A program made the position numbers and the translations under genes. From assembly GCA_016214755.1 (NCBI GenBank), contig JACRNX010000031.1, positions 18,020 to 82,019 on the forward strand: a stretch of 64,000 nt of DNA, in the 5' to 3' direction. The stretch's first letter is position 1. Every line of letters starts with the position of its first letter. Source of the DNA: Candidatus Falkowbacteria bacterium (lineage in GTDB: Bacteria; Patescibacteriota; Patescibacteriia; UBA11705; JABHMO01). Below the pieces are notes generated by a model. That model made no database searches, had not been told where the DNA came from, and saw nothing but the letters and a program-made list of their open reading frames with translations. This document shows positions 21,670 through 61,832 of the stretch, piece after piece.

Positions 21670-21685
21670 AATATCTTCCTCGTCA

Positions 21686-24109: not shown

Positions 24110-24160
24110 ATTAATGATTTTAAAATATTTTCCGAAGGATATAGTCCTGCCCAATTGTTT

Positions 24161-43957: not shown

Positions 43958-45066
43958 TGTTTGTGTAATGGATTTATCTTCAATCTTTGTTTGGCGATGA
44001 ACTTCTCCGCCGCGCGCAGATTAGCCGTGACCGTGGCGCGTTGAAAAATTTTATTTTTGGGTTGAGCGTAAATCAAAGTTGTTGGTTTGAATTTCAACGC
44101 GGTTCGTCTCAGCCTACCTTCAACGGCAAAATCAACAGCCAACTGGAAAAAATTAAATTGCGTATTTGCTTTTGGCCAGAGAACATCGGCGATCAAATCG
44201 CCGCCTAAGTCGGAGTGCAATTCAATAATATATGGTCGGCCGTCTTGATTAACGCGAAACGATAAAATTAAAATGGCGGACAGGCACGGGAATAATTTTC
44301 CAAATCGCTCGACGATTTCTATTATATCTTGCTTGACCTTAGTCTTCTCAATTATTGAAGGCACACTGACGCCAACGCCCTTGATTAAATCGTCACGAGT
44401 TACTCCCACCAGCTCATCGCAAAAACCAATGATTCGCACGCGCCCTTTTCGTACGGTAAAAAAGCAAGAAACATCAAAGCCCTCAATGTATTCTTCTATC
44501 TCAACGAAATGATTGCCAGATGCCTTTGCCGCGGCGGTAAAAGCGGCGGCTAATTGAGTTTGATTGTAAACAATCTTAACTGACTTTTTACCGACCACTG
44601 GAAAGTCCGGTTTGACGATTAACGGAAACTTTAAGGTCGTCAGATGTTCGGGATATCGTTTTGTCCTTATGTTACCGGGCATGCGCAGGCCATGCCGGCG
44701 ACAAAATATTTTCAACTTCGATTTTTCCGTGGCGAGCGGGACTATTTCCGGCGACAGGCCAACCAATTTGTATTGTTTTGCGATCCGCGCGGCTGTTTTC
44801 AAAGCAAAACCAGAGGTGCGTGCGCTCAAACCGACAAGCTGATATTTTTTCCGTAATTTTTCCAATTCTTTAATTATGCCAACGGCGTCGCGAGTGCTTT
44901 TGACGATTTTCTCAGAGGCAAAAGCGAATCCTTGCGCTTCAGGATTGCGATCAATGGCGATAACTTTATATTTCTTCGCGGCTGTTTTGACAAAAGGCAA
45001 CTGTCCGCGCCCGGCGCCAAGACAAATTATTGTTTTAGGCAATTTTTTAGTATCCGACATTCTCAT
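43933..45066 (-). CDS. ATP-grasp domain ligase (third paralogue)
   Basis: IICLGAGRGQLPFVKTAAKKYKVIAIDRN pre-ATP-grasp domain; 377 aa. Confidence 0.55.
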   Translation of the reverse strand: MRMSDTKKLPKTIICLGAGRGQLPFVKTAAKKYKVIAIDRNPEAQGFAFASEKIVKSTRDAVGIIKELEKLRKKYQLVGLSARTSGFALKTAARIAKQYKLVGLSPEIVPLATEKSKLKIFCRRHGLRMPGNIRTKRYPEHLTTLKFPLIVKPDFPVVGKKSVKIVYNQTQLAAAFTAAAKASGNHFVEIEEYIEGFDVSCFFTVRKGRVRIIGFCDELVGVTRDDLIKGVGVSVPSIIEKTKVKQDIIEIVERFGKLFPCLSAILILSFRVNQDGRPYIIELHSDLGGDLIADVLWPKANTQFNFFQLAVDFAVEGRLRRTALKFKPTTLIYAQPKNKIFQRATVTANLRAAEKFIAKQRLKINPLHKHWLSACKT

Positions 45067-46285
45067 AAATTGAAATTATTCTATCTTGCGCAACGCCTAA
45101 ATTGATTAAGGTTTTTCGCATGTCATTTTCAAACGATTGAGACGAAAGTAAAATTTTTCCGAACTCTAAACTTGATATTTGCGCTGGCGAATACACGAGA
45201 TAGCCCATTCTTTTTTTGCCATGATAATATGAATTTTTATCAATTAAGCCGCAAATAACATTTTCAAAATCAATCTGACATAACAATTCCTGCGTGTGGC
45301 AACCAGCGCCGAATATAATTAACTTTTTGCCTTTTCGTTTAAGTTCCGCCACTTCTTTTTCAATCAACAAAATTATTTTTCCCCTGACATCGTTGTTTTT
45401 TCTAAATTGACGACCGATTAACTCATTGACTTTAGATTTTGCGGAAATTATGTCTAACTTTACAGAATCATCGCCTGTTCTTTTCGGGCGGATTAAGCAG
45501 GTCAGCCATTTGCCATAATCATACCTCAGAAGATGAAAACCGGATTGATCAATTAACCAATTAAAATTTTCTAATAGATAATTGCTGGGATGGCCGGCGA
45601 ACATATCAACGAAGCCAGTTGGCGTTAAAAGAATATTGGGAATGGCAATATAGATTTGGCCATCCATTGTTAATATCTGCTTTAATCTGTTTAACTCCTC
45701 GCGCGGAAAGTCAAAATGTTCAAAAACATTATCAAGAATTATAAAATCGTATTTTCTTGACAAATCCAATTGGTCAAAGCGAATATTTTCAAATTCAAAA
45801 TAATTGTTTCCAGACAACGCTCTACCAAGCGGAAGCGAAGGGTCAATTCCTTTGGCTTGTTTAATTTTATCATGATAACAGACACAAATTTCTTTTAACA
45901 TCTTGCCGTTGCCGCAGCCTATTTCTAAAACAGAAATCGGTTCTTGCGATTCAGAAAAAAATTCATTCGCCAATTTGATAAAGGCGTTAAAATGCTGCGC
46001 CGCGCGGGCATCATTTTCTTCGGCGGATGTCTCGGCGGCGTCTATCATCGCCGAGCGATATAATTCATTAAACTGCTCGGAATCTGGATTCGGATTTTTG
46101 TAAATATGCGCGCAATCATCGCAAACAACATAATGCAGTGGCGCGCGATAAATTTCCCCGTTCGCGTCAATATATTTATAGTCAGAGTTAGAATAAAGAG
46201 ATTTAGATTTTAATGAATCGCAAACCGGGCAGTTTCGCTGGTTCATTGTGAATGTGATTTCATTATTTAATACTCTATTACTCAT
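45047..46285 (-). CDS. NDP-hexose C-methyltransferase-like (TylCIII-type three-domain architecture: Zn-ribbon + class I MTase + C-terminal domain)
   Basis: CPVCDS...CDDCAHIY zinc ribbon, VLEIGCGNGKMLKEI motif I, and a C-terminal LIIFGAGCHTQELL Rossmann-like domain. 412 aa, matching the size and organisation of sugar C-3 methyltransferases. Confidence 0.55.
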   Translation of the reverse strand: MSNRVLNNEITFTMNQRNCPVCDSLKSKSLYSNSDYKYIDANGEIYRAPLHYVVCDDCAHIYKNPNPDSEQFNELYRSAMIDAAETSAEENDARAAQHFNAFIKLANEFFSESQEPISVLEIGCGNGKMLKEICVCYHDKIKQAKGIDPSLPLGRALSGNNYFEFENIRFDQLDLSRKYDFIILDNVFEHFDFPREELNRLKQILTMDGQIYIAIPNILLTPTGFVDMFAGHPSNYLLENFNWLIDQSGFHLLRYDYGKWLTCLIRPKRTGDDSVKLDIISAKSKVNELIGRQFRKNNDVRGKIILLIEKEVAELKRKGKKLIIFGAGCHTQELLCQIDFENVICGLIDKNSYYHGKKRMGYLVYSPAQISSLEFGKILLSSQSFENDMRKTLINLGVAQDRIISIYENVGY

Positions 46286-46833
46286 ATTTGATCTTTCACT
46301 CGGATGTCTTCAAGGCCGCATTTCCACGGCTGGCCAGCGGTTTGTTTGATTTTAAATATTTTTTCAGTCGCGAATAAATATACAAATGCGCACAAAACAA
46401 GCGGCAATAAAGTTAAAAATAATGGGAGTGCTAATGCTTGTACGAGACCGATTTTAAACAAATAAAATTTGCTAATACGCTTCAGTTTCCAATCAATCGT
46501 GCAATGAAGCCAATTTTTTATGCCGAAGAATGTTAATAATAAAATTACGTTTTCAAATCCATTAATGTCAAATTGTTTATGCGGAATAATGGCGCTGTCA
46601 TAATGTTGACGTCGTATTTCCAAAATTGTCTTAATACTGATATTGCCAAAGCCGTAATCATCCTTTTCCTTGGTGCAATAAATCCGGCGGATGTTCTTTT
46701 GCGCCTGCAAAAAAGATGTTTGTTTTTTATTGTCCAACAAACAGATATCTGCTTGCGGAAATTCATTCGGCAAACTGCGCAAAAGTAGACCAAGTAAATC
46801 GCATTGAATTGTTCGAATAATCAAAATTTTCAT
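46282..46833 (-). CDS. GT9 (heptosyltransferase)-like N-terminal domain protein, truncated
   Basis: MKILIIRTIQCDLLGLLLRSLPNEFPQADICLL resembles the MKILIIRxxxxGDxxLxxP...FPxAxIdxL start of ADP-heptose:LPS heptosyltransferases. Only 183 aa with a hydrophobic C-terminus. Confidence 0.35.
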   Translation of the reverse strand: MKILIIRTIQCDLLGLLLRSLPNEFPQADICLLDNKKQTSFLQAQKNIRRIYCTKEKDDYGFGNISIKTILEIRRQHYDSAIIPHKQFDINGFENVILLLTFFGIKNWLHCTIDWKLKRISKFYLFKIGLVQALALPLFLTLLPLVLCAFVYLFATEKIFKIKQTAGQPWKCGLEDIRVKDQI

Positions 46834-47787
46834 TTATTTGCCTTTAAAATTAAAGCCAATCGTAATTTTTTCTGCTTGTTCTGGCGTTAGAGCAATTCTC
46901 TCGTTGTATAATCTTGGCGTTTTGGCGAGGCCACTCAACAGCGCCTTTAACAAAACGCTTCGCCGCCGCGAAACGCAATCAACCGCAACGCACCAAGAAT
47001 ATTTTATCAACCAGATTAAGGTTTTTATGTTAAGCGGATAATATTTTAAAACGAACATTAAGCTGCTTCTGGCGGAAGTAAAATTTGCGATTGGATTGCC
47101 GGTTCTATAATTAAACGAGCTGTCAACCGCAAAGCCCCATTTGTTGTCATTTTTTTCAGTGTCGTCCGAGGCAAACGCATGAAAGACATAAAGGTCGCTA
47201 AAATTTTTTGCGATCATGCCCGCTTTCATTACTTTTGCCGAAATTCCCAATTCATACGGCGAAGTGTGCCCCCATTCCTCCCAATAGCCGTATTGTTCTA
47301 CGATTTCCTGGCGATATCCGCCGCCGCAACCAGACCAATAGTAATTTTCTGATTCGCTTTTTGATTCGGCCAAGTGAGCCTCGTCGTAATAATTGGCAAT
47401 AAACGCTTTCTGGTTATAGACATTGAATGCAATCAAGCCAAGCCGCGGATCGCATTCAAATTCCTTTACCATTCGGGTAACGCACTCCCTGCCTGGGAAA
47501 GAATCATCATCCAGCGATACCAAATATTTTCCAGTTGCTTCTCGGCAGGCCATGTTTCTCGCCGCGACTCCGCCGATATTTTCCATCGTTCTTAGACATT
47601 TCACTTGGGAAAATTTTTCTTTAATCGCTTCACTGCTTCCGTCCGAAGAACAATTATCAACGACAATTACTTCAATTGGCCGATAAGATTGTTCGTATAT
47701 TTTTCCCAGAGTTTTTAGTATTTCATCCTTTCGATTGTAGGTCGAGAGAAAGAAGCTGACTAGGGGATTATTCATCGTTGCCACCAT
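46834..47787 (-). CDS. glycosyltransferase family 2
   Basis: LVSFFLSTYNRKDEI ... VVDNCSSDGS ... SLDDDS motifs. Confidence 0.85.
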   Translation of the reverse strand: MVATMNNPLVSFFLSTYNRKDEILKTLGKIYEQSYRPIEVIVVDNCSSDGSSEAIKEKFSQVKCLRTMENIGGVAARNMACREATGKYLVSLDDDSFPGRECVTRMVKEFECDPRLGLIAFNVYNQKAFIANYYDEAHLAESKSESENYYWSGCGGGYRQEIVEQYGYWEEWGHTSPYELGISAKVMKAGMIAKNFSDLYVFHAFASDDTEKNDNKWGFAVDSSFNYRTGNPIANFTSARSSLMFVLKYYPLNIKTLIWLIKYSWCVAVDCVSRRRSVLLKALLSGLAKTPRLYNERIALTPEQAEKITIGFNFKGK

Positions 47788-48367
47788 AAAAATATTTATT
47801 TATCTCTGTTTGTCGCAGATATTTGGCGCGGAACAGCTCCTTAACCATATGCACGATAATCAAATGAGCGTCCTCAATTCGCTCCATGGATTGCGTGTTC
47901 ACCACAATCGCCAAATCAGCTAGTTGCGAAAGTTTTCCGCCCATCTGTCCTTTATAATTGCCAGTTAATCCGATTGTAAAAACTCCTTTGCTTTTGGCGT
48001 ATTCTATGCCGCGTAAAACATTTTCCGAGTTACCGCTGCCGCTAAATCCGATTACTAAATCACTTTCATTCAAGAAAATTTTGAGTTGTCCCTCAAAAAT
48101 ATGTCCATAAGAATCATCGTTGGCGAATGCGGTCACGGCGGCGATATTATCAGTCAAGCAAAGCGTTTTTACTTCCAGGGACTTTGACCAATCGCCAGCG
48201 GCATGCACAGGCGTCGCGGCCGAACCGCCGTTGCCGATGACATAAACGGTTTTCTGCTTTTGCTTAATCTCAAACAATTTCGTGGCGATCGTGTCAATGT
48301 CATTATGACGCAAATTCGTGATCGCTGAAATTAAATCAAGTTGATATTCTTTAGTGTGCGCCTCCAT
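47768..48367 (-). CDS. gmhA: D-sedoheptulose-7-phosphate isomerase (SIS domain)
   Basis: VYVIGNGGSAATPVHAAGDW and IGFSGSGNSENVLRGIEYAKSKGVFTIGLTG match the GmhA SIS-domain signatures. Confidence 0.8.
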   Translation of the reverse strand: MEAHTKEYQLDLISAITNLRHNDIDTIATKLFEIKQKQKTVYVIGNGGSAATPVHAAGDWSKSLEVKTLCLTDNIAAVTAFANDDSYGHIFEGQLKIFLNESDLVIGFSGSGNSENVLRGIEYAKSKGVFTIGLTGNYKGQMGGKLSQLADLAIVVNTQSMERIEDAHLIIVHMVKELFRAKYLRQTEINKYFYGGNDE

Positions 48368-48381
48368 ATGATTTTAGTTTA

Positions 48382-51024
48382 CTAATTTAAATTCCCGTGA
48401 AATTCATTTAAGAAATTTGCTACCATGAGCGGTATCCTTTTACCGTTAAAGAAGGAATATTCCAAACTGTCTTGTTCGCTCTGCGTTGTTCTTGGATGTT
48501 TATAATATCTCATTGCCCACCAAAGGTCATTCAAGCGCGGGAGGTCATCTTCCGTGTACGTCCAAATTTTCTTTTTTAATTCTGGAATTATAAACGGCCA
48601 TTCTACTGCCATAGAAAAAATTTTATGGAGATAGTTTATTTGTCTTGCGTGAGGCACATTAAGAACAGTTCGATCGTGAAAACTAGGCGCCATTGAATCA
48701 AGAAAATCATCAGGGAGCTCTCCCGCCTCCCTCGCGATAGTATTTAAATGCGTTCCAGGATAAGGTGTGCAAATGCCAACCCAGGCAAAATGTGGCTGAA
48801 TTTCCGCATTTAATTCAATAGAATCAAAATCATTTTCCAGCTTTGTTGTAGGAATGCCAACCATGCTATGGGTAGTCAAATTAATTCCGTATTTCATTGC
48901 CGAGCGGCATCCCTGAATAATTCTATCATTTGATATTATCCGGCATAAGACATTTTTTCTAACATTTTCATTGCCGCTTTCCAAACCAACAAAAATCGCT
49001 TCGCAGCCATGCTTTGCCATTTGCTCAAAACTTTCATCATCGCGCGTTTCGAGTCGGCATGAACAGATGAAAGGTTTCGTGATTTTTCTTTTATATTCAT
49101 CAAGAAATAAATAGAGGGTTTCCTTGTTAGGAAAAAATAAATCATCGTGAAAATTAAATTTAGGCGGATCATATTTATCATTAAGATACTGAAGCTCTTC
49201 AATTGTATTTTTAATGCTTACATTCCATTGCTTGCCCTTGCCGGCATAAATTTCATTGTATTTCGAATTAAAACAATATGAACAATGATACAGACAGCCG
49301 CGCGATGCCATAATATTCATCGGCCCGGTTTTATCTTCGTGACGAATGAATAATTCGCGATCAGCCCAAGGAATTTGTTCAGATGGAATTTTATTGCCGA
49401 CAGGATTTTTTACTATTCTCCCGTTGTTTTTTATATGAAGGTTGGGAATGTCATTAAAATCCATTCCCTTTTGAACTCGCTTAGCAAGCTCGGCCATGGC
49501 AATTTCACCTTCGCCAATACAAATAATATCAATTCCGTCCTGTTCAAGTTCTTCGGGGAAAAAGGTTGGATGAGAGCCGCCAACAACGCAAAGGAAATTA
49601 AATTTCTCTTTTAATTTTTTAATAAGACGCCGACACTGAATATGTTCGTGAGCCGTGATATTAAATCCAACGATGTCAGGTTTAAAAGCCATCATTATTT
49701 TTTCTATGTCGTCTCCTAGATTAATCAACGCTCCTTCAACAATATGCCCGTCTTTCTTCAATACAGTTGATAAAATTTGCAATCCTAAGGGAATTTCCTT
49801 TGAAGCGCTTGCAAGCAATATTTTTACAGGGCCTTTTTCCTGCATGCTAAATTGCACTGTCGCTGGTACCTTTTTTTGTTTTGATTGTTTTAATGAGTCA
49901 ACCACATAATGCACTTGAGTTTCATCTAAATATAGGTGTAATGGCAATGACAAAATTTTTTCGTAGGCGTTTTCTGCAATTGGAAAATCGCCCATCCTGT
50001 AGCCCAACGTTTGATACGGCGCAAAATAATGCAGCGGCGTGTAATGAACGCTCGTTTGCACTCCGAGTTCGTTTAATTTATGATAGACGGCATCGCGCGC
50101 TAAACCAAAATCTTTTTCGATCTTTATCACGTAGAAATGCCAAGATGATTTGGCGTAATCTTTTTCATTCGGAATAGTGATGCCCTCAATGTTTTTTAAT
50201 AACTCAGAATATAGTCCGGCCAATTTTTTCCTAATCGCATTGAATCTTTCAACTTTTTTTAATTGAGTGATGCCGACGGCCGCTTGTCCTTCGCTCATTC
50301 GGCAATTATAGCCGACTTGAACGCAATCCCTGAACCATGGTTTCTCCAAAACTGCTGAACCGGCGTAATTGCTCAAATATTTGATTCCATGATTTTGAAA
50401 AAGTTTAATTTTCTCCATCGCCTCGACGGTTGAAGCAGTGACTATGCCGCCTTCGCCCAGCGTTGAAATGTTTTTTTGAGTGTAAAAACTATAGGCCGCG
50501 AAATGCTCAAACGAACCGATTCGTCGAGATTTATGCTCGGCGCCGATTGCGTGGGCCGCGTCGCTGATTACAGGCAAATTGTAATGAGCGGCTAAGTCCA
50601 TTATTTTATCCATATTAGCTGGATGACCTGAATAATGAACTGGCAAAATCGCTTTTGTTTTAGCGGTTATTTTTTCTTCTATCTTATCAGCGTCAATATT
50701 TAAAGTGTCAGGTTCGACATCAACAAAAATTGGTATCGCCTTTTCCAGCATAATGACATTGGCGGTTGCCACCCAGGTGATCGGCGTGGTGATAATTTCG
50801 TCTCCGGGTTGAATGTCAATTCCTTTCAAAGCAAGGTGGAGCGCGGTCGTACAACTGGAAGTTGAAAGCGCGTATTTAGCGCCTGCAAACGCGCTAAACT
50901 CGCGTTCGAATTGCTTAATCACGTCCCATTTATTGTATTCGATCGGTTTTTCCAATAGATCAATGATCGCTTTCTTATCATCATCTTCGTAAATGTTACC
51001 TCGCTGAGCAAAATAAACTTTCAT
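48382..51024 (-). CDS. fusion protein: DegT/DnrJ/EryC1-family aminotransferase domain + cobalamin-binding radical SAM domain
   Basis: N-terminal 390 aa are a fold-type I sugar aminotransferase (ITTPITWVATAN..., SFYTQKNISTLGEGG). Next is a B12-binding-like domain (VKILLASASKEIPLGLQILST...DIVGFNITAHE). Then IMASRGCLYHCSYCFNS (CxxxCxxC). 880 aa. Confidence 0.75.
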   Translation of the reverse strand: MKVYFAQRGNIYEDDDKKAIIDLLEKPIEYNKWDVIKQFEREFSAFAGAKYALSTSSCTTALHLALKGIDIQPGDEIITTPITWVATANVIMLEKAIPIFVDVEPDTLNIDADKIEEKITAKTKAILPVHYSGHPANMDKIMDLAAHYNLPVISDAAHAIGAEHKSRRIGSFEHFAAYSFYTQKNISTLGEGGIVTASTVEAMEKIKLFQNHGIKYLSNYAGSAVLEKPWFRDCVQVGYNCRMSEGQAAVGITQLKKVERFNAIRKKLAGLYSELLKNIEGITIPNEKDYAKSSWHFYVIKIEKDFGLARDAVYHKLNELGVQTSVHYTPLHYFAPYQTLGYRMGDFPIAENAYEKILSLPLHLYLDETQVHYVVDSLKQSKQKKVPATVQFSMQEKGPVKILLASASKEIPLGLQILSTVLKKDGHIVEGALINLGDDIEKIMMAFKPDIVGFNITAHEHIQCRRLIKKLKEKFNFLCVVGGSHPTFFPEELEQDGIDIICIGEGEIAMAELAKRVQKGMDFNDIPNLHIKNNGRIVKNPVGNKIPSEQIPWADRELFIRHEDKTGPMNIMASRGCLYHCSYCFNSKYNEIYAGKGKQWNVSIKNTIEELQYLNDKYDPPKFNFHDDLFFPNKETLYLFLDEYKRKITKPFICSCRLETRDDESFEQMAKHGCEAIFVGLESGNENVRKNVLCRIISNDRIIQGCRSAMKYGINLTTHSMVGIPTTKLENDFDSIELNAEIQPHFAWVGICTPYPGTHLNTIAREAGELPDDFLDSMAPSFHDRTVLNVPHARQINYLHKIFSMAVEWPFIIPELKKKIWTYTEDDLPRLNDLWWAMRYYKHPRTTQSEQDSLEYSFFNGKRIPLMVANFLNEFHGNLN

Positions 51025-53087
51025 AAATTAATTTTATTTAAATTTCGCACTTGATAAAATAAATTTTCTGGTGCGATTTGTTCCGACATCTTTCGGAGCG
51101 ATAGATTTTTCGAGTGGGATTTATATTGGTCGAATAAACTTTTAATTAAACTTTCCTGCGTGTCTGATAAATAGAATTCATATTGAAAGTTTCCGCAAGG
51201 CAAATCGTCTTTATGGCCAGATAAGCGCCAGGTTAAAATATCAAATTCAAACATTTTGATTTTTGAACGAATAAAATCATCGTTTGTTAAGTTAATTTGT
51301 AAGTTATTTGAAAAATCCAAGACATTTTGGCATTGTTTTAAAAATAAATCCGATTGTTTTGTCGCGGCTTCGCTAAAAATTTTCTTAGCGACTTGATAAA
51401 GGAAATCATTAAAAGCGGGTTGTTTTTCCAATAAAATCTTGTAAGTGTACAAATAATTTAATTTGCCGTAATCGCCGCTTCGGAGCCGCGCGAAATTTTC
51501 CTCACGCCGCCAATAATCAAAAAGTTCTTCTTTGGTATCAAACAATTCCAAATTATGATCGCGCGAAAAATCTTTATATAATTCGTTTATTTCATGCTCT
51601 GGCGATGTAATTATCTGACTGGCTCTTAGAATTACTTCTAGCGGATGAACATTTATTTTTTTAAATAAATTCAGGAAATCATAATACCATTTTTTTGACC
51701 ACATAAATTGAATCAAAAAATGGATGAAACGAAATGAACGTAAATCAGCCATTGACATGGTGCTTGTTTCCATAACATTCTCTTCGGCGTCGAACACTTT
51801 TCTGCCCTCATAAATGCCAAAGCTCATATCAAACAATCTCCAAGCCGTGCGGCGAACAAATCTATTTCTTGACTCCTGACTGTCTAAAACCGTTCCTGGC
51901 AGTAAATGCAAATTGTAATTGAAAATTTCCGTTTCCAAATCCATCATCCTTTTGTTTGTCTCAATATGGCTCTCTTTAGTTTCCAAAGGCAGTCCCAAAA
52001 TCAGTTCCGTGGACATACCCAGTTCAGCTTTCTTAAGTTCTTGATGCAGTTTAAGTAGCTCCGACCAAGAAATATTTTTCCTTTTGACCACATCTAGCGT
52101 CGGCTGATGCAGTGTTTGCATTGAGGCGCAATATTTTGTCAATTTGCCGAATTTTTTAATAATTTTCAAAAGCAATTCTGGATTTGATTTATTCCAACAT
52201 ATGTCCACATATCCTGGATAGCTGTATTTTTGACTGCATTCATAAATCTTGTCCGCGATATCAGCGTCTCTTGGGAAAAGACCAAAATTTGCGTCTGCTA
52301 ATTCCAATATTTTGGTTTTTGTGCAACGTTGGCCAATGTATTCAATCTCCAAAATAACGCGTTCCTTACTGAAAGTCGTCACCCTTTTTGATTTTTTCCC
52401 CCAAGCGCAAAAGGCGCATTCATAAGGACAGGAACGATTTGTTTCAATAATCGGAATGTACGGCTGATTGAAAAATTCATCCAACAATCCGGAAAGATAC
52501 GGTGAAGGAATGGAATCAAGATTAACGAATCCGTCAATCAATCCGCCAATCTGAACCGCATTTTCATTAAAGATGTTGTTGACAAGACATCCTGCAATCG
52601 TCTGCTGTCTAAATTTGTTCAAATCTAAATCACATTTTAAGAATTTATCAATAATATTCTTAAATCCAATTTCGCCGGAATCAACCACAAAAGCGTCGCA
52701 ATCTTGATGTTTAGAGAAAAATTTTTTTGCTCCTTCTTCGTTGGCGTTCAGGGAGCTAAATTCTGGACCGCCGCCGACAGTGAGCGTGTCCGGAGAATAT
52801 TGTTTGGTTATTTCAAAAATTCTTTTATTTAATTGATTGACCCAGCAGTAATAAGAGAGTCCGACAACTGTCGGTTTTTCGGCTTTGATGGCGCTGATAA
52901 TTTCAGCCGGACTTTTGAAAAGTTTAATTTCTGTTTTCGGATAAAATTTAAACAAATACGCCGCCACGCTCGCCACGCCCAGCGGGAAAGCCCAGGTGCC
53001 GACTTTTTCCCAATCATGTTCCAAACTGCCTAAAAATATTTTCATCTTTAATATTATTTTATTTGTCAGTCCACCGCAAAAAATCAT
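51021..53087 (-). CDS. cobalamin-binding radical SAM enzyme with about 400-aa C-terminal extension
   Basis: N-terminal B12-binding-like domain (KIFLGSLEHDW...TVVGLSYYCWVNQ), ETNRSCPYECAFCAWG rSAM motif. 688 aa. Confidence 0.7.
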   Translation of the reverse strand: MIFCGGLTNKIILKMKIFLGSLEHDWEKVGTWAFPLGVASVAAYLFKFYPKTEIKLFKSPAEIISAIKAEKPTVVGLSYYCWVNQLNKRIFEITKQYSPDTLTVGGGPEFSSLNANEEGAKKFFSKHQDCDAFVVDSGEIGFKNIIDKFLKCDLDLNKFRQQTIAGCLVNNIFNENAVQIGGLIDGFVNLDSIPSPYLSGLLDEFFNQPYIPIIETNRSCPYECAFCAWGKKSKRVTTFSKERVILEIEYIGQRCTKTKILELADANFGLFPRDADIADKIYECSQKYSYPGYVDICWNKSNPELLLKIIKKFGKLTKYCASMQTLHQPTLDVVKRKNISWSELLKLHQELKKAELGMSTELILGLPLETKESHIETNKRMMDLETEIFNYNLHLLPGTVLDSQESRNRFVRRTAWRLFDMSFGIYEGRKVFDAEENVMETSTMSMADLRSFRFIHFLIQFMWSKKWYYDFLNLFKKINVHPLEVILRASQIITSPEHEINELYKDFSRDHNLELFDTKEELFDYWRREENFARLRSGDYGKLNYLYTYKILLEKQPAFNDFLYQVAKKIFSEAATKQSDLFLKQCQNVLDFSNNLQINLTNDDFIRSKIKMFEFDILTWRLSGHKDDLPCGNFQYEFYLSDTQESLIKSLFDQYKSHSKNLSLRKMSEQIAPENLFYQVRNLNKINL

Positions 53088-54099
53088 CTAAACGCTTATC
53101 GCTTTGCAGCCGCTTTAATTGCAACAAGCGGTGGCAATGATAATCGCGAAACATTTGTTCGCTAAAATTTACTTCTCGAAAAAAATTAACCAGTTCTTCT
53201 CCACCTCGTTCCAAATTCCAAGCCGGTTTATAATAATCTTTTAACTGGTTTAAAATTTTTTTGAAACTGACGCGGTATGTTCGTGAATCGCGGCCGTGCT
53301 CACCGGTAAAAACCAATTCGCTCCCTTTAACAGCCTTTTGAGCAGCTTCAGCCAAATCGCGGACAGTGTAATTGCCATTTTCAATTCCCACATTAAATGA
53401 TTGTCCGGATATTAGCTCTCGCGGCGCCGTTAATCCGGCGATAAACGCGTTGCTCACATCTTGGACGTGAACAACCGGCCGCCATGGCGTGCCGTCGCTT
53501 TTGATTTCAATCTTATGAGTGGTATAGGCGCAAGCAACTAAATTATTAAACACAATGTCGCAACGGAGCCGCGGACTGGCGCCAAAAACCGTTGATGGTC
53601 TCATGCAGACGACAGTAAAATTTTCTGAACAGATTCCTTTTATTGCGCACTCTGCCTGCCATTTTGTTTTCGCGTACGCCGTCAAAGGATTTTTTTCACT
53701 ATTATCCTCATCCAGTTCCTCGCCGCTGTTTGCTATCCCGTACATACTTTGAGAAGACGAATAAACAAATCTTTTAATCCCATTTGCTTTTGCCAATTCG
53801 GCCAGTTTGACTGTTGCTCGAAAATTTATTTCTTCGGTTAATGCGGGATTTAATTCTCCGAGAGGATCGTTAGACAGAGCGGCGAGATGAATAATCGCGT
53901 CAATGCCCCGCAAATCTTCGGCGCAAACATCGCGAATATCTTTGATAATTTGTTTTACCGGATAATCAATTTTTTTCAATCCGCAATCCTGATAAAAATC
54001 CGAGTCATAGCCGATTACATTAAAACCGCCTTCTAAAAGTTTTTTAGACAAGATCGAACCAATATAACCAAGATTGCCAGTGAGCAAGATGTTTTTCAT
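53059..54099 (-). CDS. NAD-dependent nucleotide-sugar epimerase/dehydratase (candidate GDP-heptose dehydratase/epimerase)
   Basis: MKNILLTGNLGYIGSIL Rossmann motif and YAKTKWQAE (YxxxK). It sits immediately next to the heptose activation genes. Confidence 0.7.
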   Translation of the reverse strand: MKNILLTGNLGYIGSILSKKLLEGGFNVIGYDSDFYQDCGLKKIDYPVKQIIKDIRDVCAEDLRGIDAIIHLAALSNDPLGELNPALTEEINFRATVKLAELAKANGIKRFVYSSSQSMYGIANSGEELDEDNSEKNPLTAYAKTKWQAECAIKGICSENFTVVCMRPSTVFGASPRLRCDIVFNNLVACAYTTHKIEIKSDGTPWRPVVHVQDVSNAFIAGLTAPRELISGQSFNVGIENGNYTVRDLAEAAQKAVKGSELVFTGEHGRDSRTYRVSFKKILNQLKDYYKPAWNLERGGEELVNFFREVNFSEQMFRDYHCHRLLQLKRLQSDKRLDDFLRWTDK

Positions 54100-54109
54100 A
54101 AAATTAATT

Positions 54110-55303
54110 TTATTTGATTATCTCGACGGCTATTTGCCATAAATCCTTATCTGACGACACCAAAAAGGTTTTTACCTCGGCCGCTTCACCTGCCTGCCGG
54201 TCGGTTTCATCGTCACCGATATAAATCGCCTCGCTTAAATTAAGATGATGCTCTCGCGCTGCTTGGAAAAACATTCCTGGTTTTGGTTTCCGGCATTCGC
54301 AGTCATCGTCGCTTGAGTGGGGACAATAATAAATGGCGTTTACCTCGATATTGTTTTTCATCAGTTCCTCGTTCATGCGGCGATGAATGTCGTTCAAATC
54401 CTCTATGGTCATCAAGCCACGGCTGATACCCCGCTGATTTGTGACAATGTAAAAAACATATCCGTTTGATTTGAGCAGTTTTAACGCCGGGATAACCGAC
54501 GGCAAAAACTCAAACTCTTCCCATTTTTTGACATAATCATGGCTGGGCATTTTTTTATTAATTACGCCATCGCGGTCGAGAAAAATTACTTTTTTATGAG
54601 CTAAAAAGCTTTCCGCTCTCTTCAGATATTCAATGTTTGTTATCGGATAATAGGGATGGTCCGTTCGATAGCCGATTAATTGATTCTGTTCTATCAATTT
54701 TGGGAAGATAACAGTTTGAAACGAAAAGTTATCAGCCGGCATCATCTCCAGCACTTTCTTGTTTAGGATAAAAAAACCGATTTCCGTTCCGTTTAATCTT
54801 TCGTCTTGACGCGTTTGGTCATAAAAAATAACGCGTCCATCAGCGCCAACCGCAATATTGTTTTCAAATCCGTACTCTCCCGCGCCGTCTTTGTTATTAT
54901 AAACAGTTGTCATCGCCAACACGTTTTTTGAACGATAAAAATTCAGCATCTTCGGCAGATTCATCGGCCAATAATTATCGCCGTACATCACGAGAAACTC
55001 GTCGTGAAGCATGTCAGCAGCATTGTGTATCCGAGCGCCGGTTTCATCTTCAACCGTTCCAATGGAGTATTTTATTAGCAAGCCGAATTTGCTGCCGTCG
55101 CCAAAATATTCAGTGATTTTTTCCGCCAAATATCCCGACAAAATTACGACTTCTTCAATGCCATTTTTTTTAAGCAACTCAATTAAATACTCCAAAAAAG
55201 GTCTTCCGTTTATTGGAATCATCGGCTTCGGAATTGTCTCAGTTAGCGGCCTTAATCTTGCGCCTAATCCGCCAGCTAAAATCACTGCCTGTTTAACGCT
55301 CAT
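54110..55303 (-). CDS. bifunctional D-glycero-D-manno-heptose-1-phosphate nucleotidyltransferase (HddC-like) / D,D-heptose 1,7-bisphosphate phosphatase (GmhB-like HAD)
   Basis: N-terminal AVILAGGLGARLRPLTETIPKPM (sugar-phosphate nucleotidyltransferase). C-terminal VIFLDRDGVINKK ... YYCPHSSDDDCECRKPKPGM ... YIGDDETD are GmhB HAD motifs. The start is placed at the internal ATG 55303 (MSVKQAVILAGG), which leaves a 7-nt gap to the upstream stop; the track ORF begins at 55363. Confidence 0.75.
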   Translation of the reverse strand: MSVKQAVILAGGLGARLRPLTETIPKPMIPINGRPFLEYLIELLKKNGIEEVVILSGYLAEKITEYFGDGSKFGLLIKYSIGTVEDETGARIHNAADMLHDEFLVMYGDNYWPMNLPKMLNFYRSKNVLAMTTVYNNKDGAGEYGFENNIAVGADGRVIFYDQTRQDERLNGTEIGFFILNKKVLEMMPADNFSFQTVIFPKLIEQNQLIGYRTDHPYYPITNIEYLKRAESFLAHKKVIFLDRDGVINKKMPSHDYVKKWEEFEFLPSVIPALKLLKSNGYVFYIVTNQRGISRGLMTIEDLNDIHRRMNEELMKNNIEVNAIYYCPHSSDDDCECRKPKPGMFFQAAREHHLNLSEAIYIGDDETDRQAGEAAEVKTFLVSSDKDLWQIAVEIIK

Positions 55304-55310
55304 ACATGAA

Positions 55311-56309
55311 TTAAAAATGTCTGGAATTATAAATAATTTCACTGCCGTGAGACGAGAGTTCAACTTGCAATTCCTTTAAATCCGCTAATGCTTTCCTCAC
55401 ATTTTCATGATTTTCTGGCTTGCAATAGAAAAGTAAAAAACCGCCGCCGCCTGAACCAAGCAATTTCCCGCCTATCGCGCCCGCCTTGATTGCTCTTTCG
55501 TAATAATCATTAATTGCGTCATTGCTTATTTTACTCGCCAATTCTCTTTTTGCCAGCCAGCCCTGATGCAGAGTATTGCCGATATTATCTAAATTATTTT
55601 GCTTTAATTCTGAACGCAATTGTTCGGCATATCCAACCATTCTGATTAATTTATTTCTAGTTTCTTCTTTAGTTAAAGTATTGGCTTTCTGCTCGCTTAA
55701 AACTGCTTTTGAGTCAGAGTTCATGTTTGTATTGAAAAGAAGCAAATTTTGATTTAAATAGCGCCTGCTTTTATCATCAAGATGAATTGGTTCGGCGATT
55801 ACATTGTCGTCGGCATTGAAACGAAAATAATTCAGTCCGCCAAAAGCGGCCGCGTATTGGTCTTGTTTACCAATCGGCTGGTCCAGCAACTCAATCTCTA
55901 TTTTGCAAGCTTGTTCAGCCAGCATCTCCGGCGAAACTTGAACACCTTTGTACGCGTAAAGAGCGTTTAACACGCCAACGGCAATACTGCTGGAAGAACC
56001 CAACCCTGTTCCCCAATCGTACGGCTGAACATCAGCCATATAAACAATATCTATTCCCTTATTAATGCCGCCAACAAGTTTGAGCGCTTCTCTGATTATA
56101 TTGTGCTGAATTTTTTCTATATCGTAAACCAATTCTGTTTGCGAATAGCTGACGCGGATGTAATCATCAAATTTTTTATTGACAATCACATAAACATATT
56201 TATTAATCGTCGTGCTGACCACGGCGCCGTATCCTGTTTGATAAAAGGCCTTAAGGTCAGAGCCGCCGCCGCTAAAACTCATTCTAAGGGGTGTGCGCGA
56301 AATAATCAT
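55311..56309 (-). CDS. GHMP-family sugar kinase (D-glycero-D-manno-heptose 7-phosphate kinase HddA-like)
   Basis: MIISRTPLRMSFSGGGSDL N-terminus, PxGxGLGSSSS ATP-binding motif (DWGTGLGSSSSIAV), and the GHMP C-terminal GAIGGKLLGSGGGGFLLFY. Confidence 0.8.
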   Translation of the reverse strand: MIISRTPLRMSFSGGGSDLKAFYQTGYGAVVSTTINKYVYVIVNKKFDDYIRVSYSQTELVYDIEKIQHNIIREALKLVGGINKGIDIVYMADVQPYDWGTGLGSSSSIAVGVLNALYAYKGVQVSPEMLAEQACKIEIELLDQPIGKQDQYAAAFGGLNYFRFNADDNVIAEPIHLDDKSRRYLNQNLLLFNTNMNSDSKAVLSEQKANTLTKEETRNKLIRMVGYAEQLRSELKQNNLDNIGNTLHQGWLAKRELASKISNDAINDYYERAIKAGAIGGKLLGSGGGGFLLFYCKPENHENVRKALADLKELQVELSSHGSEIIYNSRHF

Positions 56310-56322
56310 ATTTAATAAATTT

Positions 56323-57075
56323 TCAATTTAAATTTGGCCGATTGTTGACGCAGATAGCAATAAAAGAATAAGCGTCGCGCAGTTCTGTCGTAATTGGGTA
56401 ATTATCGGGCGATAACTCGTTTTGACCTGGAATGTAAAAAATTTTTCTCGTTAAACTGCAAATTGTTTTTGGCAAGTAATTCCTAATTTTAAATGGGTCA
56501 AAATGCCAAAGAAACCGCAGCCGCGCCGAACCGTCATTTTTTAACAAGCCTAGGACATTCAAGACCTTAAATTGCCTGGATAATTCTTCAACCAGCGTGA
56601 TTTTGTCATATTCGCGATAATGAACGGGATTTGTGTTTTTCGTTTTGGCAATGTTCGGCGTAATTACAATCAATGCGCCATTTTCTTTAAGGTGTTTTTT
56701 TATTGTTATTAAATATCTCTGGGGGTCAACCATTTGCTGAATCACGTCCACGGAAATTGCCGCCTCAAAATTTTTATCCGCCAAATCAAAATCATGCAAA
56801 TCCGTCAAAACGAACGAAGTATTGGCGATATTCAAACTATGCGCGATTTCAATCGCTTTTGCGTTTCCGTCTAATCCAACCGCTGACTGAAAATAGGGCT
56901 CTAACAATTTTATTGACCAGCCCGCGCCGCAGCCAGCATCTAATATTTTTTTTCCAAAGACAAACGGTATCAAAAAATTATGCTTTGCTTTATGGATATT
57001 AATTACAACGCTGTCGGTTGTTGCTTTGCCAACGCGCGTTTGTTCGTCTGATTTGGGGTCAATGATTTTCTTCAT
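56323..57075 (-). CDS. class I SAM-dependent methyltransferase
   Basis: ILDAGCGAGWSI motif I; 250 aa. Confidence 0.75.
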   Translation of the reverse strand: MKKIIDPKSDEQTRVGKATTDSVVINIHKAKHNFLIPFVFGKKILDAGCGAGWSIKLLEPYFQSAVGLDGNAKAIEIAHSLNIANTSFVLTDLHDFDLADKNFEAAISVDVIQQMVDPQRYLITIKKHLKENGALIVITPNIAKTKNTNPVHYREYDKITLVEELSRQFKVLNVLGLLKNDGSARLRFLWHFDPFKIRNYLPKTICSLTRKIFYIPGQNELSPDNYPITTELRDAYSFIAICVNNRPNLN

Positions 57076-57151
57076 GGGTTAATGTGGAATAATTATTGAC
57101 TTTTCACAATTAGATTGACAAGATTATCTCTTGGCGAGATAATGGAAGCAT

Positions 57152-57652
57152 ATGAACCATGCTCATACTCTTTCATTATCCCATCGGGATAGAACGGCCA
57201 TGGAGCGCCGGCGGCTTAAAGCCGCGAAGCTCTTCGCCAAAGGTCGTAGACAGGCTGATGTGGCCAGAACCCTCGGAGTTAGCCGTGAGGCGGTTCGCCA
57301 GTGGCATGATATCTGGAAAAAGAAGGGGAAGATTGCTTTGCAAAGCGCCGGCAAACCAGGTCCCAAGTCTCAACTAACGCCCGAAAAATTAAGATTAGTG
57401 AAGAAAGCATTGTTAAGAGGTCCGACGGCCCATGGATTTGCCACTCAGCTGTGGACACTTGAACGGATCGCGGCCATGATCAGGAAAGTGGCCGACGTTT
57501 CTCACGGTACGACGCGGGTGTGGCAGGTGTTACAATCTCTTAATTGGTCGTGCCAAAGGCCTGAAACACGCGCCCATGAACGAAATGAGGCGGCCATCCG
57601 CCGCTGGCAAAACACCGCCTGGCCGCGCATTAAAAAAAAGCAATGCGAATAG
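57152..57652 (+). CDS. IS630-family transposase OrfA (HTH DNA-binding part)
   Basis: RRRLKAAKLFAKGRRQADVARTLGVSREAVRQW helix-turn-helix. Ends just after the A8G slippery run at 57632..57640. Confidence 0.8.
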   Translation: MNHAHTLSLSHRDRTAMERRRLKAAKLFAKGRRQADVARTLGVSREAVRQWHDIWKKKGKIALQSAGKPGPKSQLTPEKLRLVKKALLRGPTAHGFATQLWTLERIAAMIRKVADVSHGTTRVWQVLQSLNWSCQRPETRAHERNEAAIRRWQNTAWPRIKKKQCE

Positions 57653-58206
57653 GCGCAAAATTGGTCTTCTGGGACGAATCCGGCATTTCGCAAAAAGCGA
57701 GCGTCCGGCGAACATGGTCTCCCAAAGGGCGCACGCCGGTTATTGTTTCGACCGGCTCATGGCGGTCGCGGTCGGTTATCGGCATTATTACCTGCACACC
57801 GCGCGGCAGAAAGCCGAAACTGTTTCTAAGGATTTTCAAACACGCCATCAAATATCCGGATATCATTCGATGCCTCAAAGAGCTGCACCGTCATGTCAAA
57901 GAACGAATAATTTTAATGTGGGACGGTTTGCCCGGTCATCGGGCACGCGCTACTCGTTTGTTTCTGATAACGCAGAGACACTGGCTCGAAACGCATCGTT
58001 TCCCCGCCTATGCGCCGGAGTTAAATCCGCCGGAATATCTGTTTTCCGCACTAAAATCCCGCAATCTTACCGGCCTACATGTGGCCACCATCGATGAAAT
58101 TGATGCCCACATTAAAATCGGCAAGCGTCGTCTCCAAAGGCGACCGGATATTCTGAATGGTTTTTTAAAAGAGTCGAGATTGTTTGATAAAGAGTTGTCA
58201 ATCTAA
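57643..58206 (+). CDS. IS630-family transposase OrfB (DDE catalytic part; probably expressed as OrfAB via -1 frameshift)
   Basis: VFWDESGIS ... LMWDGLPGHRA ... PAYAPELNPPEYLFSALK, the DDE/D motifs of the IS630/Tc1 superfamily. This frame is open from 57634, inside the A-run. Confidence 0.8.
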   Translation: MRIGAKLVFWDESGISQKASVRRTWSPKGRTPVIVSTGSWRSRSVIGIITCTPRGRKPKLFLRIFKHAIKYPDIIRCLKELHRHVKERIILMWDGLPGHRARATRLFLITQRHWLETHRFPAYAPELNPPEYLFSALKSRNLTGLHVATIDEIDAHIKIGKRRLQRRPDILNGFLKESRLFDKELSI

Positions 58207-61828: not shown

Positions 61829-61832
61829 AAAA

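Follow-up and report, generated by a model that had tools for sequence, protein, structure and literature searches.

A Candidatus Falkowbacteria operon predicted to produce a modified, nucleotide-activated heptose with aminotransferase and cobalamin radical SAM tailoring

What sugar is made by a set of heptose-activation genes that encloses an aminotransferase and radical SAM enzymes? The question is raised by a contig of Candidatus Falkowbacteria (Patescibacteria, candidate phyla radiation or CPR), of which a stretch of 64 kb, called here the window, was analysed; all coordinates given are window positions. The interval 47768-56309 brackets exactly six minus-strand genes, whose domains are those described by the first-pass annotation of this DNA (Pfam E-values 1e-8 to 1e-112). 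The gmhA gene (SIS family), the HddA-like GHMP kinase and the nucleotidyltransferase (NTase) fused to a GmhB phosphatase reported there are all present by Pfam and by motifs, and the aminotransferase and radical SAM genes said to be embedded in the module are indeed nested inside the operon. The reading that we favour, with modest confidence, is that this operon produces a nucleotide-activated and further modified D-glycero-D-manno-heptose, by activation, C4 oxidation, amination, radical SAM tailoring and transfer to a glycan. What sets the locus apart is the cobalamin radical SAM and aminotransferase tailoring, together with the very wide spread of the underlying cassette.

The proteins that would prepare the sugar were compared with solved structures. 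The kinase, which carries PF00288 and PF08544, has only heptokinases as best PDB matches (Bacteroides 3k85, 7e-39; Burkholderia WcbL, 4usk/4usm; C. jejuni HddA, 4n3o, 5e-33), the next family being fucokinase at 1e-10. Similarly, the 13 best PDB matches of the SIS protein are all phosphoheptose isomerases (GmhA; 1e-12 to 1e-22), with 5ltz, 2x3y and 1tk9 at the top (1e-20 to 1e-22). In the phosphatase domain the DxDGV nucleophile motif reads FLDRDGVIN and the CxHxxxxxCxCRKP motif is present as YCPHSSDDDCECRKPKPG; the DRDGV and CPHSSDDDCECRKP motifs were both found, as was the CPH...CEC Zn loop. The best PDB matches of this domain are all GmhB (4pnh, 2gmw, 3l8e and 3l8h; 1e-26 to 1e-27), ahead of HisB-N. 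The domain passes the HAD-IIIA models TIGR01662 (114.9, cut-off 44.6) and TIGR01656 (141.5, cut-off 84.15) and falls just under TIGR00213 (139, cut-off 149.6), while the alpha- and beta-specific GmhB models do not discriminate (136 versus 172 bits). These genes were assigned to a heptose route because the kinase, the isomerase and the phosphatase domain all have heptose enzymes, and no others, as their best solved relatives.

Two sets of observations weigh against so direct an assignment. All four activation enzymes fall short of their NCBIfam equivalog cut-offs: the kinase scores 153.9 bits with HddA (cut-off 600), the SIS protein 93.4 bits with TIGR00441 (GmhA, cut-off 209), the NTase domain 102.9 bits with HddC (cut-off 300) and the phosphatase domain 171.9 with PRK08942 (GmhB, cut-off 178). 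Moreover, two of the four Zn and catalytic positions of GmhA are swapped in the SIS clade (E to D at D59, Q to E at E165). The catalytic and Zn residues of Burkholderia GmhA are H, E, Q and H, and H55, D59, E165 and H173 are invariant across four SIS proteins of the cassette described below; as far as the alignment tells, the substitutions look conservative but real. The four proteins belong to divergent clades, and the genomic context makes up for their weak equivalog scores. It should be noted that one homologue of the NTase-GmhB fusion, P0056, does reach the PRK08942 cut-off (178.2 versus 178).

The first-pass annotation had specified a GDP- and not an ADP-heptose route. The HddA/GHMP route, which leads through the alpha-anomer, is represented by all four of its activities, and the open reading frames (ORFs) scanned showed no HldE-type domain, so that this part of the claim holds; GDP itself is not established. 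The alpha-anomer is assigned on the known chemistry of GHMP kinases of the HddA type. The NTase domain (PF00483, 3.3e-24) has the GxGxRLxPLT nucleotide-binding motif as LAGGLGARLRPLT and is linked to heptose genes in that it is fused to the GmhB domain, adjoins the GHMP kinase and lies in the same operon as the SIS gene. Its relationship to HddC was judged by model scores and by a family profile run against the PDB. Among the NCBIfam models, mycobacterial mannose-1-phosphate guanylyltransferase (122.9 bits), MurU (105.7) and archaeal GlmU (104.8) stand above HddC, and CDP-glucose synthase (90) below it. Against the PDB, the single sequence gave 98 bits with 8x7s, 79.5 with 4y7t and 72.7 with HddC (6jq8), and the profile of 24 family members 131 bits with 8x7s, 101 with 7whr, 98 with HddC (6jq8/5xhw) and 92 with MurU. 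The best match is in both cases the UTP-glucose-1-phosphate uridylyltransferase 8x7s, Yersinia HddC coming third or fourth. UDP-glucose, GDP-mannose and MurU enzymes are at least as close to the domain as HddC is, which counts against the proposed route; a grouping with enzymes other than HddC, which the first-pass annotation held would overturn its reading, is neither borne out nor dispelled by the model and profile scores. The NTase domain thus forms a separate clade of short PF00483 enzymes; context fixes its sugar substrate but not its nucleotide, for which GDP is the default by analogy. Caution about GDP is called for because relatives of the SDR (short-chain dehydrogenase/reductase) follow a CDP-glucose synthase in Sneathiella and because an extra uridine-kinase-like domain is found in some homologues of the fusion.

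About 10 of the top 120 fusion homologues (roughly 1 in 12) have such a C-terminal P-loop kinase domain, which resembles uridine kinase or PRK. In the Hodarchaeales cassette it is a separate adjacent gene (L005, 9227-9805). The domain could supply the nucleotide or act as an alternative kinase.

The fusion of HddC and GmhB in a single polypeptide had been considered notable in its own right, a view that a survey of its homologues does not sustain. Significant matches were obtained for 7,558 of the 8,000 candidates scored, and the best 120, with 55-66% identity and mostly about 400 aa long with both domains present, are spread over Patescibacteria, Chloroflexota, Fusobacteriaceae, Babeliales, Thermoplasmata and Hodarchaeales. 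Bacteria and archaea thus share a highly conserved family of such fusions, about 400 aa in length, that numbers thousands of proteins. The fusion is common and apparently uncharacterised, no description of an HddC-GmhB fusion having been found in the literature searched, and it does not mark this locus out from others. Variants within the family are P0015 (a triple fusion in which an N-terminal GmhA-like SIS domain, the NTase and GmhB share one 624-aa chain), P0034, P0037, P0049, P0056, P0067, P0078, P0085, P0087, P0091 and P0096. Annotation pipelines label the fusion just "HAD-IIIA hydrolase" or "beta-heptose bisphosphate phosphatase".

The genes around the fusion are conserved with it. The GHMP kinase, SIS, SDR and NTase/GmhB genes recur as a cassette in more than 15 loci, including those of another Patescibacterium (L003) and of a Hodarchaeales archaeon (L005). 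Among GTDB genomes the cassette was found in Desulfomonile, Desulfobacter, Nitrosomonadaceae, Planctomycetales, Saccharibacteria, Daviesbacteria, Pacearchaeota, Chloroflexota and others, and it was also recorded in Deltaproteobacteria and Planctomycetes. The operon is built on this widespread, horizontally mobile cassette, whose recurrence, like the triple fusion P0015, speaks for the assignment to heptose activation.

Within this cassette, the SDR had been put forward as a candidate heptose dehydratase; its active site and its nearest relatives indicate otherwise. At the position where RmlB has T-D-E (STDEVYG) and GMD has T-S-E, the active-site motif of the SDR (SSSQSMYG...YAKTK) has S-Q-S and no acidic residue. 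S116, S118, Y142 and K146 are invariant in the family, and position 117 is Q or C. A 4,6-dehydratase of the RmlB/GMD/DmhA type was rejected, since the Asp/Glu acid-base pair for water elimination is missing. The best PDB match of the single sequence is 6vo6/6vo8 (114 bits, 33% identity across 300 positions), and a profile built from 17 cassette-linked orthologues matched 6vo6 over its full length with 184 bits (E 3e-53), the runner-up being a 4-epimerase at 104 bits and the dTDP-glucose dehydratases reaching at most 75 bits. The profile is 80 bits nearer to 6VO6/6VO8 than to any other structure. The SDR and 6VO6 also share an [ST]-[NQ]-S variant of the active site (T-N-S in 6VO6) and the signature FGxSPRxRxDxxxN. 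SDR orthologues with 61-72% identity adjoin the NTase/GmhB gene in bacteria and archaea alike. We take 6VO6/6VO8, a structure reportedly described by Huddleston et al. in 2020 (cited in PMC10680097), to be C. jejuni Cj1427, a GDP-heptose C4-dehydrogenase. On these comparisons the SDR is predicted to be a nucleoside diphosphate (NDP)-heptose C4 dehydrogenase of the Cj1427 subfamily and not a 4,6-dehydratase.

The position of the gene agrees with this prediction. The SDR is the only extended (NDP-sugar-type) SDR between the methyltransferase gene 56323-57075 and the glycosyltransferase (GT2) gene, and since it also precedes the aminotransferase, C4 oxidation without loss of the 6-hydroxyl is the most economical assignment. 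In Cj1427, tightly bound NADH is recycled by alpha-ketoglutarate and the 4-keto product is released (PMC10680097). A DegT transaminase that regenerates alpha-ketoglutarate from glutamate would fit such a mechanism well.

Several points tell against the prediction. The identification of 6VO6/6VO8 with Cj1427 is presumptive, the PDB molecule name being "Putative sugar-nucleotide epimerase/dehydratease". Homologues of the SDR with 43-50% identity usually follow a short NTase, which in Sneathiella is a bona fide CDP-glucose synthase; because homologues occur with this enzyme, neither the nucleotide nor the release of the keto product can be read from membership in the family. An epimerase role is possible, and the chemistry may vary within the family.

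The wider family of Cj1427-like SDRs with 43-50% identity (L022-L085) spans at least 594 GTDB species, and the gene usually lies directly after the short NTase. In Sneathiella chinensis (L030, 9228-11032) the NTase before the SDR is a bona fide glucose-1-phosphate cytidylyltransferase. A homologue of the 412-aa methyltransferase of the window (45047-46285) often comes next. These loci apparently encode an uncharacterised CDP-hexose pathway that uses the SDR in place of RfbG.

Downstream of the SDR in the operon lie the two genes for tailoring enzymes. The first encodes a protein of 674 aa, called here rSAM674, with PF02310 and PF04055 and the CxxxCxxC core as CPYECAFC. Its only solved relatives are TokK (7kdx, 1e-35) and CysS (9n1b, 7.5e-34), and it scores 175.7 bits with the NCBIfam KedN5 model, short of the cut-off of 700. 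From these relatives rSAM674 is predicted to be a C-methyltransferase. Its family has hundreds of full-length members; a metagenome scan with the rSAM674 profile returned mostly distant cobalamin (B12)-dependent radical SAM proteins, six loci being close enough to use. In the closest loci, L086 (68% identity) and L087 (55%), the gene likewise follows the SDR, the genes being arranged as NeuB, PseF/G, methyltransferase(s), GHMP, NTase/GmhB, SDR, rSAM674; L086 has PseB and PseC upstream as well, and the contig of L087 begins within NeuB. The order SDR-rSAM674-DegT is kept in both, DegT being a separate 386-aa gene in L087. Orthologues of rSAM674 with at least 55% identity were found only beside the heptose cassette (3/3 cases).

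The main uncertainty lies in the substrate of rSAM674, which might act on the nonulosonate branch of the surrounding glycan island instead. Two observations point that way: a pseudaminic-acid (Pse) module is directly upstream of the heptose block in the window, and homologues of rSAM674 with 36-48% identity sit in NeuB clusters of the legionaminic/pseudaminic type that have no heptose genes (L088, L089, L092, L093, L096, L173 and the P0249 contig; also P0251). The family is tied to tailoring of amino sugars and nonulosonates, and only the sub-branch with at least 55% identity is tied to heptose. No description of a B12-dependent radical SAM enzyme acting on heptoses was found in the literature searched.

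The clusters with rSAM674 homologues contain NeuB, a NeuC-like epimerase, a PtmE-like CBS-NTase, LegB/LegC-like pairs and a PglD-like acetyltransferase. That rSAM674 homologues belong regularly to such clusters implies an undescribed radical methylation in nonulosonic-acid biosynthesis.

The second tailoring gene encodes an 880-aa protein in which an aminotransferase precedes a further B12-binding and radical SAM module. The DegT domain matches PF01041 over its full length (7.8e-112, 374.5 bits) and is 36% identical to the bona fide PseC of the island, with the catalytic pyridoxal phosphate lysine aligned (SFYTQK versus SFHPVK). Because it misses the NCBIfam PseC equivalog cut-off (329 bits, cut-off 423.5), it was taken as a PseC paralogue of different specificity. 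Such an enzyme needs a keto-sugar, which points to the SDR, the sole extended SDR in the block, as its source. The radical SAM domain has the motif CLYHCSYC and weak best matches to HpnJ, HpnR, PhpK and AprD4. Its stand-alone homologues (474-484 aa, 33-40% identity) have DegT genes as neighbours, both in an archaeal AglB locus and in loci for polysaccharides, and B12-dependent radical SAM genes recur beside DegT genes in glycan loci (L002, L172). No other DegT-B12-radical SAM fusion was found among 1.84e9 cluster representatives, by a word-indexed search and an exhaustive HMMER scan. At the junction of the two domains lies a run of seven A; removal or addition of one A gives a DegT protein of 399 or 392 aa, and the radical SAM ORF then starts at an in-frame ATG (49845). 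Hence the fusion either arose very recently, is polymorphic (phase variation) or results from an error in the assembly, and the adjacency of the two genes is the robust fact. The operon is AT-rich, with 16 runs of at least seven A/T in about 10 kb.

The island holds a second fusion of an enzyme to a radical SAM module, an 822-aa protein (21686-24154, minus strand) that starts with an extended SDR (Epimerase) domain and continues with a B12-binding and a radical SAM domain. Next to it are encoded a GDP_Man_Dehyd-like SDR (17370-18488), a 254-aa NTase (18473-19237) and two DegT aminotransferases (19239-20378 and 20362-21753), and the group makes up another nucleotide-sugar module with cobalamin radical SAM chemistry. 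The second fusion shows that B12-dependent radical SAM modules are repeatedly coupled to nucleotide-sugar enzymes in this organism.

Four other explanations of the locus were weighed, two of which concern the SDR. In the version of the first-pass annotation it would be a GDP-heptose 4,6-dehydratase of the DmhA/WcbK type, giving a 6-deoxy-4-keto-heptose and then a methylated 4-amino-4,6-dideoxy-heptose. The matches of the SDR to Pfam Epimerase and GDP_Man_Dehyd would suit such an enzyme, as would the habit of aminotransferases to follow a 4,6-dehydratase in classical pathways and the existence of 6-deoxy-heptose pathways in Yersinia and Campylobacter. The S-Q-S triplet without the acid/base pair and the low rank of dTDP-glucose dehydratases in the profile search speak against it, however, as do the NCBIfam scores (RmlB 46, CDP-glucose dehydratase 35.5 and LegB 69.5 against 89 bits for GalE), and we consider it improbable. 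Alternatively, the SDR might only epimerise the NDP-heptose at C4, C2 or C6, through a transient keto intermediate. DegT would then receive its keto group from the fused radical SAM domain, working either like the dehydrogenase BtrN or like the diol dehydratase AprD4. After 6VO6 the nearest relatives of the SDR are indeed 4-epimerases (6wjb, WbgU, GalE), and SSSQSMYG resembles the SSSATVYG motif established for GalE; the fused radical SAM domain has AprD4 as best solved match (6fd2, 3e-9; 43 bits with the NCBIfam AprD4 model), and its fusion to an aminotransferase would suit channelling of a ketone. The AprD4 match is weak, however, with the methylase families HpnJ, HpnR and PhpK scoring higher; the fusion is one base away from two genes and is absent in L087, where DegT follows rSAM674 and there is no second radical SAM gene. 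With the 80-bit preference for Cj1427 over the epimerases added, this alternative is unlikely, though a little less so than a dehydratase.

The other two explanations concern the sugar. We give about the same small weight as to the epimerase to the possibility that rSAM674, and perhaps the DegT-radical SAM protein, serve the adjacent pseudaminic-acid pathway by modifying a nonulosonate precursor or an N-acyl group, leaving the heptose unmodified or only oxidised or epimerised. All seven rSAM674 homologues with 36-48% identity and a usable context are in NeuB/CMP-transferase/LegB-LegC-type clusters devoid of heptose genes, the three heptose-linked loci carry PseB-PseC-NeuB-PseF/G immediately upstream (as far as the truncated L087 contig reaches), and PseC is the best family of the DegT domain. 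By contrast, the radical SAM gene is placed between the SDR of the heptose cassette and DegT in the window, and likewise in L086 and L087 as far as their contigs reach; in the window, the SIS gene of the cassette is downstream of both the radical SAM and the DegT genes, the Pse module has its own PseC above the equivalog cut-off (472 versus 423.5), and the closest rSAM674 orthologues keep to the heptose cassette. Finally, the cassette might run the same logic of isomerase, anomeric kinase, phosphatase and NTase on another ketose phosphate, a hexulose or octulose phosphate. Scores under the equivalog cut-offs for all four proteins, altered metal and catalytic residues in the SIS clade and an NTase domain that is not specifically HddC-like would allow this, but the nearest characterised relatives of three independent proteins are all heptose enzymes, by margins of at least 10 orders of magnitude for the kinase and the SIS protein. 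The fourth linked enzyme, the SDR, is closest to a GDP-heptose dehydrogenase, and P0056 passes the GmhB cut-off, which leaves a sugar other than heptose very improbable.

Taken together, the favoured heptose pathway can be laid out in eight steps, of which steps 1 to 4 rest on homology plus context and steps 5 to 8 are inferred. The GmhA-like SIS protein would convert sedoheptulose-7-phosphate to D-glycero-D-manno-heptose-7-phosphate (1), the HddA-like GHMP kinase would form the alpha-1,7-bisphosphate (2), the GmhB domain would take off the 7-phosphate (3) and the NTase domain would activate the sugar, GDP being expected by analogy (4). The Cj1427-like SDR would then oxidise C4 without dehydration to an NDP-4-keto-heptose, the hub of the pathway (5), which the PseC-like DegT domain would transaminate to an NDP-4-amino-4-deoxy-heptose (6). 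rSAM674 and the B12-dependent radical SAM domain fused to DegT may modify an unactivated carbon of the same sugar, with C-methylation as the likeliest reaction (7), and the coupled GT2 would transfer the product into a Wzx/Wzy-type surface glycan that also contains a sugar of the pseudaminic-acid type (8). The product is likely an NDP-4-amino-4-deoxy-heptose, possibly C-methylated. A bolder version, which we put forward tentatively and regard as less probable than its failure, is that the nested SDR-rSAM674-DegT trio carries out radical C-methylation on the NDP-heptose, possibly iterative or chain-extending, to give a C-methyl-branched or octose-like 4-amino-4-deoxy sugar. A heptose that feeds NeuB to form a 10-carbon ulosonic acid was considered and rejected: the island has a complete conventional PseB/PseC/PseG/PseI/PseF set, and nothing links NeuB to heptose.

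The gene arrangement is summarised in Table 1. Two starts were revised according to the NCBI models (ATG 55303 for the NTase-GmhB fusion and 53045 for rSAM674), with which apparent overlaps vanish. Because neighbouring genes are then 7-14 nt apart or overlap by 4-20 nt, we infer a single translationally coupled operon; by its coordinates, the start of the GT2 gene overlaps the end of the SIS gene by 20 nt, indicating translational coupling. The functional unit exceeds 47768-56309 and includes at least the GT2 gene and the methyltransferase gene at its two ends; in the syntenic loci L086 and L087, orthologues of the methyltransferase gene (50-56% identity) immediately precede that of the GHMP kinase. 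The same gene block was found in an independent Logan assembly of SRR12113407, and an 87-kb contig of the same organism encodes NCBI proteins with 100% identity to the NTase-GmhB fusion, the 880-aa protein and rSAM674.

Table 1. Genes, domains and junction of the heptose operon, in order of transcription (window positions).
Feature	Position	Strand	Families
Class I SAM methyltransferase, 250 aa, first gene of the heptose block	56323..57075	-	Pfam Methyltransf_11/31/23
HddA-like GHMP kinase, 332 aa; predicted D-glycero-D-manno-heptose-7-phosphate anomeric (C1) kinase	55311..56309	-	GHMP_kinases_N + GHMP_kinases_C
NTase-GmhB fusion, 397 aa with NCBI start	54110-55303 (ORF call to 55363)	-	NTP_transferase + HAD-IIIA
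Sugar-1-phosphate nucleotidyltransferase domain, N-terminal in fusion	54647..55291	-	PF00483 3e-24
GmhB-type HAD-IIIA domain, C-terminal in fusion; predicted heptose-1,7-bisphosphate 7-phosphatase	54140..54598	-	
Cj1427-like extended SDR, 346 aa; predicted NDP-heptose C4 dehydrogenase	53059..54099	-	
rSAM674, class B cobalamin-dependent radical SAM protein of TokK/CysS/KedN5 type, 674 aa; predicted C-methyltransferase	51021..53045 (ORF call to 53087)	-	
DegT + B12-binding + radical SAM protein, 880 aa	48382-51024	-	
DegT/PseC-like pyridoxal phosphate sugar aminotransferase domain, residues 1-384 of 880 aa	49873..51024	-	PF01041
A7 run at the DegT/radical SAM junction	49871..49877	-	
Second B12-binding/radical SAM domain, residues ~404-880, fused to the aminotransferase	48382..49815	-	PF02310 + PF04055
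GmhA-like single-domain SIS protein, 199 aa; predicted sedoheptulose-7-phosphate isomerase	47768..48367	-	PF13580/PF01380
GT2 glycosyltransferase, 317 aa; probable transferase for the product	46834..47787	-	PF00535 6e-25

All sizeable ORFs of the window are on the minus strand except one insertion-sequence transposase, and together they form a surface-glycan island of more than 64 kb. Apart from the heptose operon, it holds several GT2 and GT4 transferases, a Wzy-like protein, a flippase-like protein, an initiating GT4-family phosphotransferase, ATP-grasp ligases, methyltransferases, a bona fide Dxs and at least one further nucleotide-sugar module. Of the two proteins encoded directly downstream of the operon, 183 aa (46282-46833) and 412 aa (45047-46285) long, searches of Pfam, NCBIfam and the PDB gave only a generic methyltransferase fold, for the 412-aa protein.

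The pseudaminic-acid module (59250-63972, minus strand) has a PseB (473 bits) and a PseC (472 bits) that pass their equivalog cut-offs, a short PseI-like NeuB of 296 aa that stays under the PseI and NeuB cut-offs, and a 588-aa protein in which a CMP-sugar synthetase domain is fused to a PseG-like hydrolase domain (PseF-PseG); no PseH acetyltransferase was seen near the module. Between this module and the heptose block, on the opposite strand, lies an intact insertion sequence of the IS630 family (57094-58222, plus strand), with perfect 28-bp terminal inverted repeats and TA at both ends, whose transposase is split into a helix-turn-helix ORF (57152-57652) and a DDE_3 ORF (57643-58206). The syntenic locus L087 lacks this element. 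The stop of a Methyltransf_24 gene (58198-59241) overlaps with the right repeat, so that the insertion probably altered the C-terminus of that protein and interrupts the operon.

The Dxs gene (40236-42059, minus strand) encodes a bona fide 1-deoxy-D-xylulose-5-phosphate synthase (TIGR00204, 528 bits, cut-off 466) and lies between ATP-grasp ligases and a FabG-like SDR. In L003, split transketolase-like genes accompany the heptose cassette. This setting points away from isoprenoid synthesis and suggests a thiamine diphosphate-dependent two-carbon branch or an acyl side chain. Further along the minus strand are a 641-aa fusion of an N-terminal cytidylyltransferase (CTP_transf_3) with a class I/II aminotransferase (24161-26086) and two SPASM-domain radical SAM proteins (30915-31943 and 32638-33606) with a methyltransferase between them, which brings the radical SAM modules of the 64-kb window to five in total.

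If the proposed pathway is correct, its consequences would reach well beyond this organism. The cassette of GHMP kinase, GmhA-like SIS protein, Cj1427-like SDR and NTase-GmhB is spread over thousands of uncultured bacteria and archaea, Asgard and DPANN lineages among them; naming it a four-gene NDP-4-keto-heptose generator would correct many annotations and would extend the C4-dehydrogenase paradigm far beyond Campylobacter. Attached radical SAM and aminotransferase genes would predict undescribed amino and C-methyl heptoses, the locus would offer a defined nucleotide-sugar substrate for an uncharacterised branch of TokK/CysS enzymes, and, should the bolder version hold, cobalamin radical SAM chemistry would serve routinely in primary nucleotide-sugar tailoring among CPR bacteria and archaea, and not in antibiotic pathways alone. 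A bacterium with a tiny genome devotes more than 64 kb to the synthesis of a surface glycan, for which it would have to scavenge B12; to our knowledge, CPR bacteria generally do not synthesise this cofactor.

The closest known system is the capsule heptose pathway of C. jejuni with Cj1427. In strain HS:2, GmhA2, HddA, GmhB and HddC/Cj1423 are followed by the C4-dehydrogenase Cj1427, the epimerase Cj1430 and the reductase Cj1428 (PMC10680097). The operon described here has the same succession of an isomerase, a GHMP anomeric kinase, a 7-phosphatase and a PF00483 NTase, followed by a C4-oxidising, non-dehydrating SDR that would lead to a 4-keto hub, and in both systems the SDR gene is clustered with the activation genes and a methyltransferase. 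By contrast, the NTase and the phosphatase are here one polypeptide, the Falkowbacteria proteins are only about 25-35% identical to those of Campylobacter or to other characterised enzymes, and an aminotransferase and two cobalamin radical SAM modules take the place of the epimerase and reductase as tailoring enzymes. The HddA/HddC/GmhA/GmhB system of Aneurinibacillus thermoaerophilus (2001) reportedly has the same four activities by the alpha-anomer/GHMP route and not by HldE (ADP, beta); it is said to differ in having four separate proteins and no tailoring by an SDR, an aminotransferase or radical SAM enzymes. The 6-deoxy-heptose pathway of Yersinia pseudotuberculosis and C. jejuni (DmhA/WcbK and the reductase DmhB) likewise starts from an NDP-heptose, and Yersinia HddC (5XHW/6JQ8), with 72-98 bits, is one of the NTase domain's nearer solved relatives, though not the nearest; unlike the 4,6-dehydratase DmhA/WcbK, the SDR described here has no dehydratase catalytic residues.

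Amination by the predicted route has a parallel in the septacidin L-heptosamine pathway, with the 4'-oxidase SepI, the epimerases SepJ and SepA and the aminotransferase SepG (PMC9978623). There too a 4-amino-4-deoxy-heptose arises by C4 oxidation and DegT-type transamination; however, an FAD-dependent GMC enzyme serves as oxidase, an N6-glycosylated adenine that derives from ADP-heptose takes the place of an NDP-sugar as substrate, and no radical SAM enzyme takes part (PMC9978623). In its domain architecture and length rSAM674 resembles TokK, CysS and KedN5 (about 650-680 aa). Enzymes of this type methylate unactivated sp3 carbons, some of them iteratively, and GenK acts on a sugar carbon of an aminoglycoside. 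TokK, CysS, KedN5 and GenK belong to antibiotic biosynthesis (carbapenem, cystobactamid, enediyne and aminoglycoside), whereas rSAM674 is encoded in a nucleotide-sugar operon for a primary surface glycan.

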